A stretch of 64,000 nucleotides of DNA from Parvularia atlantis (taxonomy: Eukaryota), in NCBI GenBank assembly GCA_943704415.1, contig CALSCO010001030.1, positions 1 to 64,000 on the forward strand, read 5' to 3'. The position numbers and the translations under genes are program-made. The notes beneath the pieces are model-generated. The model saw only the letters and a list, made by a program, of their open reading frames with translations. It did not search any database and was not told where the DNA came from. Below, in pieces: positions 3,981 to 25,081 of the stretch; the first letter of the stretch is position 1; every line of letters begins with the position of its first letter.

Positions 3981-5541
3981 ATGGCAACAACCGCGCGCGC
4001 GAGGTCGTCCGGCTCCGCGACCTTCTTCGTCGCTGCGTCGACCGCGGCAGCGTCGGTGTCGGCGTCGGCAGCCGCAGCGTCACCCGGTGCGGAGCCCGCC
4101 GCGCAGCCGGAGCCGCTCGGGCGGCGCGGGCGCGTGCCGTCGCTGCCGATGCTGGTGCGCGCTCCGACGTCAGGCTTGGAAGGCCGCTGCTGAGGCGCGG
4201 CTGCGCAGGCGGCCGCCGAGCGCGATCTGCTCGTGCACTACGTCGCGAAGGACTACCACCGGCGCCTGCGCGTGGTCAACAACATGCTTGTGGCGGTGCC
4301 GCACGCCCGCGCGCCCCCGCACGGCCCGCCGCAGACTCACGACTCGGCTCGCGCTTGGCCAGGACGCGATCGCGCTGTGCGTGCAGAAGCTCGGCTGCCC
4401 GGACCGCGACTACGACGTGCCCGCGCACGAGCAATACGGCCTGTACGTGCCGTCGACGGTGTGTGTGTGTGTGTGTGTGTGTCGTGGCGTGTGGCGTCGT
4501 GTTGCCACGGTCTGAGCACGCGACGAGCGCAGGGCCAGTGGGTCGACGCGTCGCGCGGCAGCGACCTCTTTGGCGTGACGGACAAGGTGCTGCGCAAAGC
4601 ATGCCGTCACCCAGCTAACGATGGCGGGCCGGCGACGCACAGGAGGAGCTGCAGTTGCACAACCGCGCTGACCCGATCAAGCTGCCGGCAGTGCGCGACA
4701 CTCAGTTGCGCCCGGCACGCAGGCGCTCACCCGCCCGGCAGACGGTGGCAGCGCGCTCGCACTACGCCGAAGGCTGGCTGCACAAGCAGGGCCCGCACTC
4801 GACGGCGTGGCAGCCGCGCTTCTTTGTGCTGATCAACCACACGCTGACCTATTACAAGCGCAAGCCGGTGCGCGAGGCGCTCACGGCGGCCGGCACACGT
4901 GTGCGCACTAACGGTGGCGCTGCCTGACGCAGCGCGACTGCGCCGGCGAGGAGCCGCCCGCGGGCGAGATCGACCTGACGGCCGCGTTCGAGTTTGGTGT
5001 GTCGCCGATGTGCGCGTGCGTGGCCCGTCAGCAGGCATCGGCCAACGTCTCACGCGGCTGGCGAGCGCAGTCAGGAGATGCGCGGGTCCATGGAGGACTT
5101 TGCGTTCCACCTCACAAAGCCGCACCGGATATACTACCTGTGCGCGGCCAACTCGGCGGTGCGCACGCGCAGCTGTCTCGGCTGGGGCGCGGGCGTGACC
5201 CGCACGTATTGCGCGCAGGACCTGTCGCACTGGCTGCGCATCCTGCGCCAGCTGCAGGCCGAGCTGCAGGACATGATCCTGTCGGACGGTACGGACGACG
5301 AGGAGTTCTCGTCCAAGGTGTACGAGCCGCACGGTGCGCCGTCAGCCTTGTCGCGCCGGCCTGCTGAGCGCGTGCATCGCCTCGTAGCCGCGCACCACGC
5401 CGGCCTGCCAGACGGTGATAAGGCCGGGTATCTGCTCAAGCGCGGGCGCGCGACCAACATCTGGAAGGGGCGCTGGTTCGTCCTGAAGGACAAGGTGCTG
5501 CAGTACTACAAGGTCTGTCGCCCACACAGTCGCACGCACCG

Positions 5542-15773: not shown

Positions 15774-16873
15774 ATGTACACTTTGTCGCTTGCAAAAGTC
15801 GCGCCTGTCATCAACCTCGTTGAGCCGAAGGCGCATGCGCGTCTTTTCGTGCACCTGGGGCTGCAGCGGTGCGGCCGGCAGCGCGTCGGTCCGGGCCTTC
15901 GCCTGGACCGTCGCGGCCGACCACACCGCCCGCCCCGCTGGCGCCGCAGCGTCCTCCGCCCCGGTGCGCCGCGCGGCGCGAACGGCCCGGCGCGCCCTCA
16001 CACGCCCGGCGCAGCGCGTTGAGGACCTCCGCCGAGCCCGCGCCCCTGCGCGCCCCCACCGCCACCGCGCGGCCAAGCGCTCGCGCTGCGCTCCTGCGCC
16101 GTCCCCGCCGGCCGCGGTATTCCGGTGGGGCACGCGCTTGCTCGGCCGGCAACCAGGCTGACACGCGCTGTCGCAGCCCGGCCGACTTCCCGCCGCTGCC
16201 GTCGCGCGCCGCGCCCACCGCCCCGCGCGCCGCCCCCGCCCCGGCCGCCCCGCCCGCACGGCCCGTCGCCGTCGCGCAGCTCGTCAAGGCCGCGCCGCCA
16301 GCCGACGTCGCACAACGCCCCTACAGCCAGGTCGCCGGCGCCGCCGACTCGCACCGCGCGGCCCTGGCCGCCGCCTCGGCCGCCGCTGCCGCTGCCCGCG
16401 CCCCGCTGCCCGCGACACGCCTCGCGCCGCTCACGCGCAAGCTCGTGCGCGTCATCCGCGACGACCTCGCGTGCGTCCCCGCGCCGCCCGTGCGCCCGTC
16501 GCCCGCGACCGTCTCTGCGCCGGCGGCGGCACCGCTGCCCGCCCGCCCGCGCGCACTGCGTTCGCTCCCGCGCGCTGTCACGCTCTTCCGTGCGCGCCAC
16601 CGTCACGTCGCGTGCGTGCGTCGCCTCGCGCCGAGTGCCTTCCTCTCGCGGCGCCTCATTCAGGTGCGCGCAAGGTTGCATTGCTGTGCGCTCAGCACTC
16701 ATCTGCCGCAGCGCATGGTCCGCGCCACGACGTCCACCGCGCTGCTGCGCCAGTACAACTTGCTGCGCCCGTCGTGGGCGCTCGTCGGTGCGGCGCCTCC
16801 GGCTCTGTGAGCGGCCCGACTGACCGCACACGCGCGCACAGACGGCGGCTGGCGCCCGCAGGCCGCTTGCTGA
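15774..16873 (+). CDS. Pro/Ala-rich hypothetical protein, multi-exon; start uncertain
   Basis: Phase-consistent introns near 15963, 16117, 16664 and 16788; ends ...LLRPSWALV/DGGWRPQAAC* (TGA 16871-16873). Confidence 0.45.
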
Positions 16874-16921
16874 GCCTCTCCCTCTCGTGCATCCATTTGC
16901 CTACCCCTGACCTACTCGACC

Positions 16922-19142
16922 ATGCAAGCCCACATCAACCCGTCCCTCGCCGAAGTCACCCGCCGCCTGCTCGACGGCGAGGGCAACATGATCCCCGTCT
17001 TCCGCCAGCTCAACGCCGACCTGCTCACGCCCGTGTCGGTGCGTGCACACAGCCGTCGCTGCCGCTGCGGCAGTGCACTCACCGCCGTCCGTGCCAGGCC
17101 TACCTTAAGATCGCCAAGGGCGCCACGCACTCGTTCCTGCTTGAGTCGATCGCGGGCGGCGAGCGCGTGAGCCGCTACTCGTTCATCGGCGCCAACCCGC
17201 GCAAGATCATCGCCACCGGTCCGAACGAGGCGGTGCAGGGTGCGCCGAGCCACCGTCACGCTGCAAGATGGCGCCGCTCAGACGCGCGTGTGGCGCAGGC
17301 GACCCGCTCGCCGTGCTGGAGCCGCTGCTGCGCGACGTGCGCTACATGCGCGTGCAGGGCCTGCCCGCGTTCACTGGCGGCGCCGTCGGCTACATTTCGT
17401 ACGACTGCGTGCGGCACTTTGAGCCGCGCACGGTACGCCCGCTCAAGGTGCGCAGCGCGCATGTCCCCCCGCGCACCGGTGTGACGCACGCTCGCACGCG
17501 GCGCAGGACGTGCTGCAGATCCCCGAGGCCGTGCTCATGTTCTGCGACACGATCATCGTCTTTGACCACGCGTGGCAGACGATCAAGGTGGGTGCGCACA
17601 GGCTCTGCTGTACTGAAAGGCTTGCTCACGCGCGCCGCGTTCCAGGTCGTCGCGCACGTCTCGCACAACGCCACTGCAGGCACCGACCGCGCTGCCAGCG
17701 AGACCGCCATCGCCGAGGCGTACGCGCAGGCGTCCACAGCGATCGACACGCTGCTGCGCGCACTGCAGGACCCGCACGTGCCGCTGCCACAGCAGGGCAC
17801 CGTAACGTCAAGCCCCGAGGTGGGCGACGACGCGCTGCGACTTGGCTTCACGCTGACTGCGCCGTGCAGCCCGTCTCGAACGTCGGGCAGCAGGGCTACG
17901 AGGACATTGTGCGCAGCCTTAAGCACTTTATCCACGAGGGCGACATTATCCAGGCCGTGCCGTCGCAGCGCCTCGGTGTGCCCTCGCTTGTGCTGCTCAC
18001 GCCGGGCTCATCCGCTCGCGCCGTCAGCACGCCCGACCGAGCTGCACCCGTTCAACCTGTACCGACACCTGCGCTGCGTTAACCCGTCGCCGTACATGTT
18101 CTACGTCGACCTGAAGGACTTCCAGCTGATCGGCGCGTCGCCTGAGGCCATGGTCAAGGTCAGCGCCGACGGCCACTGGCGACGTCGGCGGTCTGACGCG
18201 CCCGGGCCACGCAGGTCACCAACGGCGAGGTCGAGACCCACCCGATCGCGGGCACACGCCGACGCGGCCGCACGCCCGAGGAGGACGTCGCGCTCGAGAA
18301 AGAGCTGCTCGCGGACGAAAAGGTGGCGGCGTGGTGCACCGGCAGCCTCGCTGACGCCGCCACCGTACGCAGGAGCGCGCTGAGCATATCATGCTCGTCG
18401 ACCTCGGCCGCAACGACGTCAACCGCGTCTGCGTGCCGTCTACCGTGCGCGTGGAGGACCTGATGCACGTGCAGCGCTTCTCGCACGTCATGCACATCGT
18501 CAGGTGCGCCTCCGCCCGGCGACACGCGGACGCCGCTCACATCGCGCTGGCGCATGCACGCGCAGTCGCGTGCTCGGCCAACTGCGCGCGGAGTGCACGC
18601 CGTTCGACGCCTTCCGCTCGATCTTCCCGGCCGGGACCGTGTCGGGCGCGCCGAAGGTCAGTCGCGTGCGGCATGCGCCCTCACACAGGAAGCGTTGACC
18701 CGACCGGCCGCAGATCCGCGCGATCGAGCTCATCAGCGAGCACGAGAAGGAGTGCCGCGGGGTCTACGCCGGCGCAGTCGGCTACTTTAGGTGCGCGCAG
18801 CCGCCAGTTCGCGCGATCTGCTCACGCGGTGGGCGCCGGCCCAGCTACTCGGGCGACATCGACACGTGCATCGCCATCCGCACGATCCTGCACAAGAACC
18901 GCACGCTGTACCTGCAGGCCGGTGCGGGCATCGTCTTCGACTCGGACCCGACGGCCGAGTACGAGGAGACGATTGCGAAGCTCAACGCGAACCTGGCTGC
19001 CATTCGCTCGGCAGAGCAGACGTACGCGGCACCGCTCGGTGCGTCGCGCGTGCCTGTGCGTGCGCTGGCACGCTGACGGTGCGCAGAGGGCGAGCAGGAC
19101 GGCTCGTCGGCCAGCAAGCGCCGGAAGCAGTCGCGCAAGTAG
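16922..19142 (+). CDS. trpE: Anthranilate synthase component I (TRP2/TrpE)
   Basis: DLLTPVS/AYLKI...[101 protein letters not shown]; last exon ...SKRRKQSRK* (TAG 19140-19142). Confidence 0.96.
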
Positions 19143-19153
19143 ACACGCCCACC

Positions 19154-20014
19154 ATGGCAGCGGTCCACAACGGCGGCAGCAGCGGCGAGCGCGCCGCCCC
19201 GCGCGTGCTGCTGATCGACAACTACGACAGCTTCACGTGGAACGTCTACCAGTACCTCGAACTGGCGGGGGCGCGTGTGACCGTGCACCGCAACGACAAG
19301 GTGCGCGCGGAGTCGCACCCAACGTCGGCTAGCTCATCGTTGTTGCGACAGATTACCGTGCAAGAGTGCGAGGCGCTCCAGCCGACCCACATCGTCATCT
19401 CGCCAGGGCCCGGCCGCCCAGCCGACGCCGCCGTGTCGAACGACGTGATCCGCACGTTCGCGGGGCACGTGCCCATCCTCGGCGTGTGCCTGGGCGAGCA
19501 GTGCATGTACGAGCTGTACGGCGGCGTGGTGCGTGTGCGCGCGGGGGTTCGACGCCCGCCGACATCAACGCGCAGGTGACCTACGCCGGCGAGATCAGGC
19601 ACGGCAAGACCGCGCCCGTGTCGCACGACGGCCGCGGTGTGTTCAAGAACGTGCCGGACAACATCGAGATCATTCGGTACCACTCGCTCGCCGGTGCGCA
19701 TCGCGTGCAAGCGGTGTCGGCGCTCTCGCTGACGTGCGCTGACCGCAGGGGACCCGGCGACGCTGCCTGCCGTGCTGGAGATCACAGCGCGCACGGCCAA
19801 CGGCATCGTCATGGGCGTGCGGCACCGCGAGCTGATCGTCGAAGGCGAGCGCGCACGAGGGCACACGCCGTGTGCGCAGGCTGACGAGACACGCACAGGC
19901 GTGCAGTTCCACCCCGAGTCGATCAAGAGCGAGGGCGGCCTGACAATGTTTAGGAACTTTTTGAGCTGGTCCGGCGGGCGCTGGAAGGATCTGCCGCCAA
20001 GCGCGTCATTCTGA
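19154..20014 (+). CDS. trpG: Anthranilate synthase component II, glutamine amidotransferase (TrpG)
   Basis: [62 protein letters not shown] in gcccaccATGG context; TGA 20012-20014. Confidence 0.96.
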
Positions 20015-20072
20015 GCGTATGCGCGGGTCCTGCGGTCTGAGCGCTCAAGCTAACCGCGGGCGCAGACGACCG

Positions 20073-21236
20073 ATGGCGCAGCCGACCATTCTCGAGCGCA
20101 TCGTGCAGCAGCGGCGGCTCGACGTGGCCGCTGCCAAAGAGCGCGAGCCGCTCGAGGCGCTACGTGTGCGCGTCACGACGTCGGCTCCGGCGGCAATCGA
20201 CTTTCACGCGCGGGTGCGGCAGCGATTGCGTCGCGATGAGCACCTCGCTCATGCGCAGCCTCTCGCCAGCTTCTGCGCGCCGTGCAGCCGCCAGCGAGCC
20301 ACGTCGCCGTGATTGGCGAGATCAAGCGCGCGTCGCCGTCCAGAGGAGGCACGTCGCGGTGGTGGGCCTCCAGATGCGCAGCCGCGCTCACACACCGCGC
20401 GCCCGCAGACATCGCACCGGGAGCCGATGCGCTGGCCACTGCCCTGACATATGCGCACGCGGGTGCGGCCGCGATCTCGGTCCTCACCGAGCCGACGTGG
20501 TTCAAGGTGCGCTGCGCACGCTGCTGCTGCCGCGCTGCACCGCGACACTCACGGGATGGGCAGGGCCACCTCGAGGACCTGCGGGAGGCGCGCGCGGCTA
20601 TCGAGCGCAAAGTTGGCGCCGACGCGCGCCCGGCGTTCTTGCGGAAGGACTTTATCGTTGACGAGTACCAGGTCGCGTCTTGGGAGCCCCATTTACTCGG
20701 CCCGCTGAGCGTGCGCGCCCAGGTGCTCGAGGCGCGTGTCGCCGGCGCCGACACGGTGCTGCTGATCGTCGCGTGCCTGTCGGACGACGAGCTGCGCGAG
20801 TTGATGCGCACGTCCCGCGCCCTGGGTATGGAGCCGCTGGTGGAGGTAAACAACGCCGACGAGGTGTGTGCATGCGACCTGTGCGGCATAAGCATGCTGA
20901 CGGCCGGACGCAGATGCGGCGCGCGCTGGCGCTGGGCTCGCGCGTGATCGGCGTCAACAACCGCAACTTGCACAGCTTCACGGTTGACATGAACACGACG
21001 TCGTCGCTGGTGCGGTGTCCTGCGGTGCGCCGCGCTCGCGCTGACGCCTGCCCGGCCAGGCCGAAATGATCTCGCGGGACGGCGACGTGGTGCTCGCGGC
21101 GCTGTCGGGCATCACCGGCCGCGCCGACGTGGCCGCGTACGAGGCGCAGGGCGTGCGCGCGGTGCTCGTGGGCGAGGCGCTCATGCTGGCGGCCGACAAG
21201 GCCGCGTTCATCCGCGGTCTGCTCACGGCAACATGA
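20073..21236 (+). CDS. trpC: Indole-3-glycerol-phosphate synthase (TrpC)
   Basis: [94 protein letters not shown] 21234-21236. Confidence 0.95.
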
Positions 21237-22235
21237 CGTTGGTCAAGATCTGCGGCGTGCGCGGCGAGGACGGTGCACGCCCGCCTGCGCCGCGTGCTGC
21301 CCTGCTGGTCGCTGAACATCTGCGCAGCGGCTGTCACTGCAGCCGACGCCGGCTGTGACCTCATCGGCCTGATCTTCGCCGTCTCCAAGCGGCAGGTGGC
21401 CCTCGCGACGGCGCAGGGCATCGCTGCGCGCGTGCGGTCGCCGAACGAGCGTGGCACGGCGCAGCTCGACGACACATCGTACACCGCAGCGGCGCGCTCG
21501 CTGACCGCCGAGCGGATGCGGCTGGGGCGGCCGCTGCTGGTCGGCATCTTTGCGGACCAGCCCGCGGAGCATATCAACGAAATTGCGGGTGCGCCAGCCG
21601 CGCGCGCCGTCGTGTGTGTGCGTGCGGATGCTGACCGGGCGCCCCGCGCAGAGGCCGTGCCGCTCGACCTGGTGCAGCTGCACGGGCTGCACGAGCCCGT
21701 GGACATGCCGGCAAAGGTGCTCGCGAGGTCTGGTGGGCACGGGCGCTGACGGTGCGCGCGTGCAGATCGTGCGGCCGTGCCTGCGCGCGCTGCACGTGCT
21801 CCCGGACGACACGGCGGCGACGGTGCGAGAGCGGTGCGTTGGCTGGAGCAGGAGGAGGTTGTGCTCGCGCTCATCGGTCACACAGGCTGCGCGCGCACGA
21901 GGGCCACGCCGCGCTAAGCCTGCTGGACACGGGTGTCAAGGGCTCTGCGGTACAGGGCGGGAGCGGCAAGGGTGCGCGCGTGCGATGCCGCTCACTGCTG
22001 CCACCGATCTTTGCCGCGCGCAGAGTTTGACTGGTCAATCGCCGCCGAGCTCGCGCGCGAGGGCTTCCCGTTCCTGCTCGCGGGCGGGCTGACGCCGACG
22101 ACGGTCGCGAGCGCTGTGGTGCAGGTGCGGCCGCTGGGCGTGGACGTGTCGAGCGGGGTCGAGGACGCGGCGACGGGACAGAAGGACCTTGGCAAGATTT
22201 GCGCGTTTGTAGCCGCCGCTGCTGTGTCTCGGTGA
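21233..22235 (+). CDS. trpF: Phosphoribosylanthranilate isomerase (TrpF)
   Basis: [40 protein letters not shown]...[26 protein letters not shown]...[10 protein letters not shown]. Its ATG overlaps the trpC stop (ATGA). Confidence 0.94.
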
Positions 22236-22250
22236 TCGATCGCGCACCAC

Positions 22251-23321
22251 ATGCTCGTGCACAGCGCGCGCCTGGTGGTGCCCGAGGGCGCGGCGAGCGC
22301 CGTGCGCCTGGCGGTGCGCGTGGGCGTGCCGAGCGTTCCCGGGCCGCGAGCCGCGACAGCGCTGATCATCGCGCATCCGTGGGGGCGCGTGCCGGCTGCG
22401 CGCTCTGCCTCGTCTCGGCTTCTGACGCGCGATGCGCGCCCCGACAGCCCGCTCGGCGGCAACGCCGACAACAACGTCGTCCAGGCCGTGTTTGGGCACT
22501 TTGGGCAGCTTGGGTACACGGTCGCGTGCTTCGACATGCGGTGCGGCGTGGCGCGTGTGGCGATGCGCGATGATGGCGCGGGCTGATCGACGGCGTGCAG
22601 GGGCGCAGGCGCGTCGACCGGCTCGACGTCGTGGACCGGTGCGGCGGCGCACGCGAGCTGCGTGCCGACGGGTGGCATCGCTCACGCGGACGCGGCGCGC
22701 GCGCAGGCGCAAGCGAGGCCGAGGACGTGCGCGCCATTGTGCGGTACGTGCTGAGCGCGCAGGCCGGCACGGCCACGCCGGTCGAGCGCATCGTGCTCTG
22801 CGTGCGTGCGCCACACGCGCGCGCGGCACTGCACCGCTGAGCGTGCCCGGACGCGCGCACCAGGGCTACTCGTACGGCGCCGCCGTCTCGGGCATGGTCG
22901 TCGACGAGTTCCCGCAGATCGTCGGCTACGTCGCGATCGCGTACCCGTTCAGCGTGCTGTGGTCGGTGCCGCGCACCCCGCGGACGGTCCGCCGCTCACG
23001 CGACGCACCGCGCAGGTTCCTCACCTCGCTCACGCACGGCGCGGTCCTGGCGAGGGCGCGCACAGCCAAGCCCAAGCTGTTTGTCCAGGTGTTGCTGATG
23101 CGCGCTTGCTGGCCGCAGCAGCGACTGAGCCCAGAACGGCGGCCGCGCAGGGCGACTGCGACAACTTCACGGGCCGGTCGAGCTACACGTACTACCTCAA
23201 CTCGTTTGCGCAGCCGCTGCAGGTCGAGTGGATCGACGGCGCCGACCACTTCTTCTGGAGCCGCGAGAAGCAGGTGGTGCGCGCGATCGAGCAGTGGCTG
23301 CAGACGGCGTGTCGCCTGTAA
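22251..23321 (+). CDS. Alpha/beta-fold hydrolase
   Basis: AHPW/.PLGG, FDMR/GAGASTG, nucleophile GYSYG, GDCDNFT (Asp), GADHFF (His). Confidence 0.88.
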
Positions 23322-23335
23322 AACAAAGCTGACCC

Positions 23336-25081
23336 TCATGCGGACCCTGCTGCCGGCTGGCACACGAGCTTGTGCCGCGGCCAGTCGTCCTGCTGGCATG
23401 TGCGGCAGCAGTAGGCCGCGCGCTTGCAGCGGCCGCAGTGCGACAGCGGCACGTACTCCTGCGCGCACGCCTGAGCACGCGTGCATGCAGACGCCGCCTC
23501 TGTGCACCGTCCGGCGCGCGTCTGCCATCATCGTGCGCTCGAGCTGCTCGGCCAGGCGTGCGTAGCGCTGCACAACCGCGTCCCGCGCCGGCTTTGTGTC
23601 GGCTGGCGCGACACGAGGCTCAAGACGCTGACCACTGAGTGCCGTGCAACCACGAGCGTACCGCCGTCCGCGATGCCCTCGAGCTCGCGCGCCATCGCCG
23701 GCTCGAGCTCCTGCGTCCAGCGCTGCTTGACTTGCGCGACGATCTGGTGCCGTGCCCATTCAGCGGGCGTGACAGGACGCGAGCACGCAGCACGACCTCT
23801 TTCTTGCGCATGTGGTCCCGCGACGACAGGTGCCGCCCAAACGTCGCGAGCAGTTCGGGCGCGTCAGGCGGCCCGCTCGAGCGCGCGCACTCGGGCCGCT
23901 CGCACAGGACCTCAGGCCGCTCATCCGGCCGAAAGGTCAGCGCCGCCGCTGGGCAGGACGGCGCGCAGTGCTCACCTCTGTGCTGGCGTTGTGGTCGTGG
24001 ATGGGCCACGGGACGCACACCTTGCGTGACAGACCCGGCACGGTTGCGATGAACGGCGCGAGCACGTCACCGTGCCAGAACGGCACCTGCGCGCGCGCAC
24101 GCGTGGGACGCACGCGCACGCCAGCGCCCCGGCTCGCACCAGCACAAAATCTTGGTCGACGAGCGAGTAGAGCGCCGCGACGGGGCAGTCGAGCTCGCCG
24201 CGCAGCCGGAAAACCGTGTGGGTGAACGAGCGCAGCAATGCGGCGTCGTGCCCGGCCGCCTCCCACACGCGCCTGAGTGCGAGCGTCTCGTCACGGATGG
24301 CCGAGGGCAGCGGCGCGTTCGGGTCCCGGCGGTCGTCGTCGTCGTCGTCAGACGGTTCGTCATCCGACGCGTCGTCCTGCGAGCGCGGTGCGCGGCCGCT
24401 GGCGCGCTGGGCCTCGTCCTGCCGGTGTGGCGATCAGCCTCGGGTAGAGTGCCCACGCGCACGTGCCTGTCGCCTTTGCGACTCGACGAAGGCGCGCAGA
24501 CAGTTAAGGCGCACGGCCGCGGCGACGACGAGGGCCGACGCGCTGCGCTCGTACCTGCGCTTGGGTTCAAAGGCGCATTGATGCGCGTGACAGTGGCCCC
24601 CGCACCGCGCGTTAACCAGCGCGAGCGGCACGGCGAGCTGGCGCAGGATGTGCGTGGACATTTTGAACAGGTTCTCGGTCGTGTCGAGGCGCGGCACGGC
24701 GCGGAAGACGACCGCGGGCCAGTGGAAGCGCGCGGTCCGGCCCGTGTCGAGCGCGAGCATCTGCCACGACGTCGGCCGGCCCTCACTGTCTGCGTGCGCG
24801 CACGTCAGACGGCCGTGGTGGCGCGCGATCGGTCCCGACGTGCCTGCCGGCAGGAAGAGCGTCTGCGGGCGCCGCCGCGTCTGCTCGCGCGCCCACTCGG
24901 CGATCTGCCGGCGCTCGTCCACCTCGAGCTTGTAGAAGATTTCCTCAACCTGCCGCAACGCAGCGATCACCGGCGTCAGATGGTGTCAGCAGGCCGCCGT
25001 CGACGGCGCACGCGCCTGGGTCGCGCTAAGGCGGCACTGCGCAATGTCGCGCGGCAGAGTCTTGGGCTCGTCCGCGGGCAT
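23336..25081 (-). CDS. Hypothetical protein with a C-terminal MYND-type zinc finger
   Basis: Last exon LSHCGRCKRAAYCCRTCQQDDWPRHKLVC...*; upstream exons are unassigned. Confidence 0.65.

Follow-up and report, generated by a model that had tools for sequence, protein, structure and literature searches.

An unfused, intron-rich trpE-trpG-trpC-trpF cluster in Parvularia atlantis, with a trpC/trpF stop/start overlap that makes it a candidate for termination-reinitiation

The window analysed here, a 64-kb stretch of DNA from Parvularia atlantis, a rotosphaerid opisthokont, is eukaryotic in character, with 70% GC and short introns, and its host is likely a nucleariid amoeba, a relative of the fungi. 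Four trp genes lie on the forward strand in the order E-G-C-F, each open reading frame with its own stop, its own start and a product predicted to be intact, while no trpD, trpB or trpA was found within the 64-kb window. The features are listed below, where X2 is a run from a separate study of the same organism, called RNA by guess but nevertheless spliced.

15835..16873, + strand: Ala/Pro-rich open reading frame upstream of the cluster, 294 aa if the predicted intron 16125-16176 is real, ending 48 nt before trpE.
16922..19142, + strand: trpE, anthranilate synthase component I; 518 aa, 12 introns (gene model, with intron lengths that agree with the X2 coordinates).
19143..19153, + strand: trpE/trpG spacer, 11 nt, with a strong Kozak context at its end (CCACC-ATG-G); unbroken in X2 piece 19086-19298.
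19154..20014, + strand: trpG, glutamine amidotransferase; 217 aa, 4 introns, its own TGA.
20017..20065, + strand: GT-AG intron of 49 nt between the trpG stop and the trpC start (X2 joint 20016>20066).
20073..21236, + strand: trpC, indole-3-glycerol-phosphate synthase; 279 aa, 6 introns.
21233..22235, + strand: trpF, phosphoribosylanthranilate isomerase; 243 aa, 5 introns; identical to protein P0241, with a Pfam PRAI match.
21233..21236, + strand: ATGA overlap, formed by the trpF ATG (21233-21235) and the trpC TGA (21234-21236), within X2 piece 21059-21271.
22251..23321, + strand: gene that follows the cluster, with 233 aa predicted; 15 nt separate it from the trpF stop.

The closest match of the trpE product is the E domain of protein P0253 (58.7%), and TrpG matches a chytrid TrpG domain at 74%. 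The first-pass annotation had recognised trpC and trpF from the letters alone, and both identities are borne out by Pfam matches above the cut-offs (IGPS for TrpC, PRAI for TrpF) and by the near-invariant columns, retained at 53/53 positions in TrpC and 25/26 in TrpF; judged on their sequence, both reading frames look intact. The 243-aa TrpF model is 100% identical to P0241, a EukProt protein whose record is named Parvularia atlantis and which possibly derives from the same RNA data as X2. An identical TrpC was not found in the protein collection containing this TrpF (108-2000 aa searched), and no longer open reading frame encloses trpC; the occurrence of TrpF without TrpC would fit a separately assembled trpF RNA, and dataset filtering as well. 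As to the flanking genes, neither of the two exon pieces of the upstream Ala/Pro-rich frame has a Pfam match, and the gene that follows trpF, which gave no family match, is from its motifs presumably alpha/beta-hydrolase-like. Read as a mere leader, the upstream frame would have 34 codons from the ATG at 16715 (16715-16873), including two Trp codons, 48 nt before trpE, which may be chance, or the tail of the 294-aa gene.

At the trpC/trpF junction, TrpC ends in RGLLTAT at the TGA 21234-21236 and TrpF begins with MTLVKICG from 21233, in the -1 frame, at the coordinates first proposed for them. Since a Met-Thr start places a TGA in its own -1 frame, ATGA is automatic once the upstream frame reaches that start. 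The overlap is the only one of stop and start among the window's 29 gene models; the gene finder used cannot represent overlaps and bridged trpC and trpF with a false 126-nt intron, and no further false bridging intron was apparent among the other 19 predicted introns longer than 68 nt (311 introns predicted in all). A DNA run, X1, matched 16600-23600 as a single piece with 0 differences to the window, although it does not count as independent evidence because it is possibly the window's own source. In X2, the piece 21059-21271, delimited by the joints 21008>21059 and 21271>21327, spans the junction with 0 differing letters and 0 gaps, and therefore there is neither an extra base nor an intron at this point. 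An extra base is one of two findings that the first-pass annotation had named as fatal to its proposal; it was sought in the X1 and X2 contigs and none was present, and the lack of an intron had likewise been read correctly. The other, a trpF start site within the last trpC exon, is plausible in so compact a genome. The ATGA overlap is real. In a lake metatranscriptome (X3), no match at 98% crossed the junction; elsewhere it gave a few exact 151-nt pieces, some with an unspliced intron.

All four trp stop codons lie within a single X2 contig of 4303 nt, which covers approximately 16597-22638 and from which 30 introns have been spliced out. The spliced model agrees with this contig at 4170/4170 expected nucleotides up to 22383, and at 4302/4303 overall. 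Fifteen joints were listed directly (3 + 12) and the remainder was deduced from the record coordinates, the deduced intron bases amounting to 557/557 and 216/216; the joints cover all 12 introns between 19250 and 21420, an interval with no loose ends, in which the trp contig is the sole X2 record mapped. The contig extends on one side into the 3' part of the upstream frame and on the other into the 5' part of the gene after trpF, both unrelated to trp. A short-read contig that spans several genes is not the same as a single RNA molecule. The ends of transcripts are not visible in contigs, and the depth of a contig (67.8 for that with the trp genes, 21.9 for the next) cannot rank the genes. Two of the 30 RNA-supported introns (19845-19898 and 20349-20408) are of the GC-AG type.

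On the RNA, the spacers E/G, G/C and C/F measure 11, 9 and -4 nt. All three trp-internal junctions are thus of 11 nt or less, against 0/7 of the other same-strand neighbour pairs (15-160 nt; Fisher p=0.008, with a threshold picked post hoc and comparison gaps that are genomic and rely on predicted starts). The intron located between trpG and trpC shows that transcription enters this spacer from upstream and that splicing reduces it to its 9 nt. Once the intron is removed, trpC starts in the frame in which trpG stops. Use of an alternative donor, the GT at 20005, would join G to C in a single frame as fungi do, but X2 does not have this form.

With regard to translation, the X2 contig has 23 AUGs ahead of the one that starts trpF, and out-of-frame AUGs are not depleted, making leaky scanning from the cap implausible; the short first frame and scarce upstream AUGs that characterise leaky-scanning bicistrons are not features of the trp cluster. 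The spacing of stops and starts, in turn, is that expected for termination-reinitiation (overlap, or within about 14 nt), with the AUG following the stop at the 9- and 11-nt junctions, and AUGA together with close stop/start spacing are marks of coupled termination-reinitiation in the excerpted text of PMC5972666. UGGGA, the core of the TURBS element, occurs nowhere in the spliced RNA, and a TGGGC at -67 codes for the conserved VGE motif. Predicted folding of the RNA at the overlap, computed without a shuffle control, revealed nothing distinctive. Before the starts of 23 other genes in the window we detected an A/T-rich patch (mean best 10-nt window 6.6 vs 5.4 in coding sequence, p=1e-5); the value for trpF is 4, below 21/23 of these genes, which is weak evidence because the stretch preceding trpF is coding. 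The motifs TTCGA and CCCAT are also enriched before starts (6/23 and 5/23, uncorrected for multiple tests).

The trp cluster, in short, looks like a translationally coupled operon. The explanation that we favour, with a probability of about one half, is a polycistronic trpE-G-C-F mRNA from which TrpF would be made by termination-reinitiation at the trpC stop. The four genes would be transcribed together as one spliced polycistronic mRNA, with single molecules spanning all of them, and ribosomes would terminate at the trpC TGA and restart at the overlapping trpF AUG. We favour this explanation because all three junctions are so short and an intron lies between two of the genes; that trpF has no A/T patch ahead of it adds weak support. 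The first-pass interpretation is partly supported, coupled reinitiation, its core, being the leading candidate. P0121, a stand-alone TrpC that is 69% identical and sister to this TrpC, provides further support by ending at the same residue count. Against it, reinitiation would have to follow, unaided, upon frames as long as 217-518 codons, TrpG is required in amounts equal to TrpE, and the spliced RNA has no UGGGA.

Further evidence to the contrary comes from how tightly genes are packed here. The X2 contig includes an unrelated gene on each side of the cluster, at gaps of only 48 and 15 nt, and head-to-head starts are down to 38-60 nt apart, so that promoters inside neighbouring genes are plausible. 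The main rival, which owes that rank to the extreme compactness of the window and to the joining of unrelated neighbours in the contig, holds that trpF, and also trpG and trpC, have their own start sites inside the preceding last exons, that the resulting RNAs overlap and have only their first frame translated, and that the ATGA is a fission scar. Gaps between predicted genes are indeed 11-244 nt in 26/28 cases (counts from our own gene finder, with predicted starts) and unrelated same-strand pairs lie 15-160 nt apart; there is an A at -3 of the trpF AUG; in the excerpted text of PMC3629993, microsporidian transcripts begin in upstream genes or end in downstream ones; and the protein collection with TrpF and no TrpC adds a weak point in favour. 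This explanation, however, requires a clean leader to begin at most 48 nt before the trpF AUG, past the in-frame trpC AUG at 21183, where the A/T patch is absent, and it leaves unexplained why all three trp junctions should be so short. In addition, RNAs that continue past a stop through many introns would be decay targets unless their downstream frames are translated, a line of reasoning whose idea appears in the portion of PMC3951408 consulted. We consider separate internal starts possible, though doubtful.

Two further mechanisms have far less in their favour. Internal entry, or the cleavage or trans-splicing of a precursor into single-gene mRNAs, is known from nematode and Drosophila operons (excerpts of PMC2776167), and a 3' splice site does lie 7 nt before the trpC start; trpF, however, lacks any AG acceptor from 21201 to its AUG, and X2 shows no loose end in 19250-21420. 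We regard such routes as very unlikely. Scarcely probable, too, is that a -1 ribosomal shift, which the first-pass annotation had listed as an alternative, or a rare splice form fuses TrpC to TrpF as in relatives. The trpF frame is open throughout the last trpC exon, and with a single base more TrpC and TrpF would be linked by 26 residues, the shortest length among fused relatives (26-83), but the last 180 nt of trpC contain neither a slippery heptamer nor a homopolymer of four or more, as a programmed -1 shift would call for, and the in-frame splice options (e.g. GC donor 21201 to AG 21247) would remove conserved residues and are absent from X2, where rare forms can be lost in contig building. 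Finally, the suggestion in the first-pass annotation that a one-base assembly error interrupts a fused trpC-F gene, natural as C-F is fused in most eukaryotic relatives, is refuted at the contig level by the identity of X1 and X2 to the window (0 differences, 0 gaps) and opposed by P0241, a complete stand-alone TrpF, and the likewise unfused P0121, and can for practical purposes be set aside.

Fungal fusions, G-C-F or G-C, make up most of the best 120 longer matches to TrpC. The best stand-alone match is the unfused P0121, in which, as in the Parvularia TrpC, the end lies 23 residues from the VGE motif, and the next are from Tepidiformales-like Chloroflexota. Eight Tepidiformales-like loci (L001-L008, among 80 loci fetched) have all their available trp genes nearer to this cluster than other bacteria have theirs, with identities of 47-58% for E, 58-65% for G, 59-64% for C and 43-44% for F. 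Fifty-six loci contained both trpC and trpF; in the 48 that could be scored the commonest gap was -4 (10/48). Of the seven Tepidiformales-like loci with both genes, three carry the ATGA overlap and four have a TrpF beginning with MTLVKICG. This bacterial operon resembles the Parvularia cluster in its order, E..G-D-C-F, in having the closest bacterial proteins and in the ATGA of 3/7 loci, but it differs in that the genes studied here are nuclear, with spliceosomal introns, have no trpD, trpB or trpA beside them in the window, and branch with opisthokonts and not inside these bacteria. The cluster context, with its three junctions, and the occurrence of the same junction in the bacterial sister operon were missing from the first-pass annotation.

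Fusions are found across eukaryotes. When a Tepidiformales-like TrpE was used as query, the best match was P0253, a 1345-aa E-G-C-F protein of Blastocladiella britannica; E-G fusions are represented by P0266 and P0270 (one of them from Balamuthia), C-F fusions by Amoebidium, Pterocystis and Planoprotostelium, and other combinations by Choanoeca (D-C-F), Diphylleia (D-C) and Rigifila (G-C-F). All fused junctions obey the order E-G-D-C-F. These proteins, including the fungal G-C-F and the Blastocladiella E-G-C-F, share with the Parvularia genes the same G/C/F protein clade and the same domain order; they are single polypeptides, however, whereas here a stop and a new AUG occur at each junction. 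Close relatives were also sought in metagenomes with two scans for degenerate patterns, which returned 0 loci and then 20, including 6 trp loci, none of them close (L085 and L100 are C-F fusions, L089 is bacterial).

A tree of concatenated G, C and F (41 chosen rows, two of them with C only, and 677 columns under LG+G4, omitting most of the 413 proteins and 100 loci fetched) united Tepidiformales-like bacteria and eukaryotes at 100/100, so that the eukaryotic trp genes of the fungal type have their bacterial sister in the Tepidiformales-like trp operon (e.g. L001:1671-9751). The cluster and P0121 pair up (100/99); Amoebidium and Fungi belong to the same clade (97/99), in which the pair stands outside Fungi (99/98). 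Monophyly of the eukaryotes against the bacteria is weak (80/73), and for this reason either direction of transfer is possible. The AU test rejected a grouping of the cluster with L001-L005 and L007 (p=0.006), from which it follows that these are vertically inherited opisthokont genes and not the product of a recent bacterial operon transfer. Single-gene quick trees placed TrpC beside fungi and TrpG inside fungi, and left TrpF without a resolved position. We infer vertical descent of all four genes from an E-G-D-C-F unit that was already linked and that is related to the Tepidiformales-like operon.

Comparison with other systems places the locus among the candidates for polycistronic, reinitiating loci, which it looks like. 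The coupled termination-reinitiation of caliciviruses and influenza B, and of a handful of cellular mRNAs, CASQ2 and GAD among them, shares the AUGA overlap and close spacing (excerpts of PMC5972666), but here there is no UGGGA, four conserved enzymes of one pathway are involved and the coupling is putative. Green-algal polycistronic nuclear loci also have several frames on one spliced RNA with short spacers. Set beside the criteria for such loci in PMC7896298, each frame here does have its own stop, start and intact product; for single RNA molecules across two or more frames the observation is one short-read contig over all four, and for a single upstream start site it is the A/T-patch proxy. 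As far as the excerpts of PMC7896298 and PMC11892635 go, the algal loci have a short first frame, leaky scanning and median spacers of 40-183 nt, in contrast to the long first frames, numerous upstream AUGs and single pathway found here. Overlapping transcription in microsporidia (PMC3629993, in part) resembles our case in the very compact genome and in RNA that runs across neighbours, but Parvularia is a free-living, intron-rich organism with pathway genes in operon order. Eukaryotic trp genes are mostly unlinked or fused, according to the portion of PMC3942023 available. The part of the PMC9492541 main text at hand makes no mention of operon, polycistronic, tryptophan or intergenic, and our literature search, with most subscription papers outside its coverage, found no published report of the trp cluster or of the Chloroflexota link.

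What is found in this genome is, in any event, a set of unfused, intron-rich trp genes in operon order, with the C/F junction of their bacterial sister operon, and it suggests that eukaryotic trp genes are linked to a single lineage of Chloroflexota, a connection so far unreported. If a nucleariid does cotranscribe these unfused, pathway-ordered genes, the cluster would offer a cellular test case for reinitiation after long frames without TURBS, and ribosome restart on the same message would be rare among nuclear genes. The origin of the fungal trp fusions would also become directly testable, whether from operon to fusion or from fusion to operon-like cluster. Even if internal promoters were responsible for trpF expression, the junction would still record a fission, or a pre-fusion state, at single-base resolution.

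The C/F overlap itself is probably a scar, left when one base split an ancestral fusion of C and F, and its retention as a bacterial junction is a somewhat less likely alternative; the E-G and G-C adjacencies require an ancestral linked unit in either case. Loss of a single base before Met-Thr would yield ATGA automatically, which speaks for fission. On the tree, fused and split C-F states require at least three changes, by our own count one fusion and two splits, versus about five fusions if the split state was retained, and on this account parsimony leans slightly toward fission in nucleariids. Against it, one base suffices to fuse overlapping cotranscribed genes, and Met stands at the place in question in 0/85 fused linkers. 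The most ambitious proposal, namely that a never-fused bacterial trp operon has survived in the nuclear genome of the fungi's sister lineage, having gained 28 introns, being read as one mRNA by serial termination-reinitiation and preserving the pre-fusion state of fungal G-C-F, E-G-C-F and other eukaryotic trp fusions, appears unlikely to us. The position of the Met was also considered as proof of an unfused relic and rejected, given that, absent as it is from the fused linkers, it is present in 2/11 stand-alone TrpF proteins of Kickxellales. In this order (P0242-P0252), a stand-alone TrpF occurs beside G-C fusions, likely as the result of an independent split.
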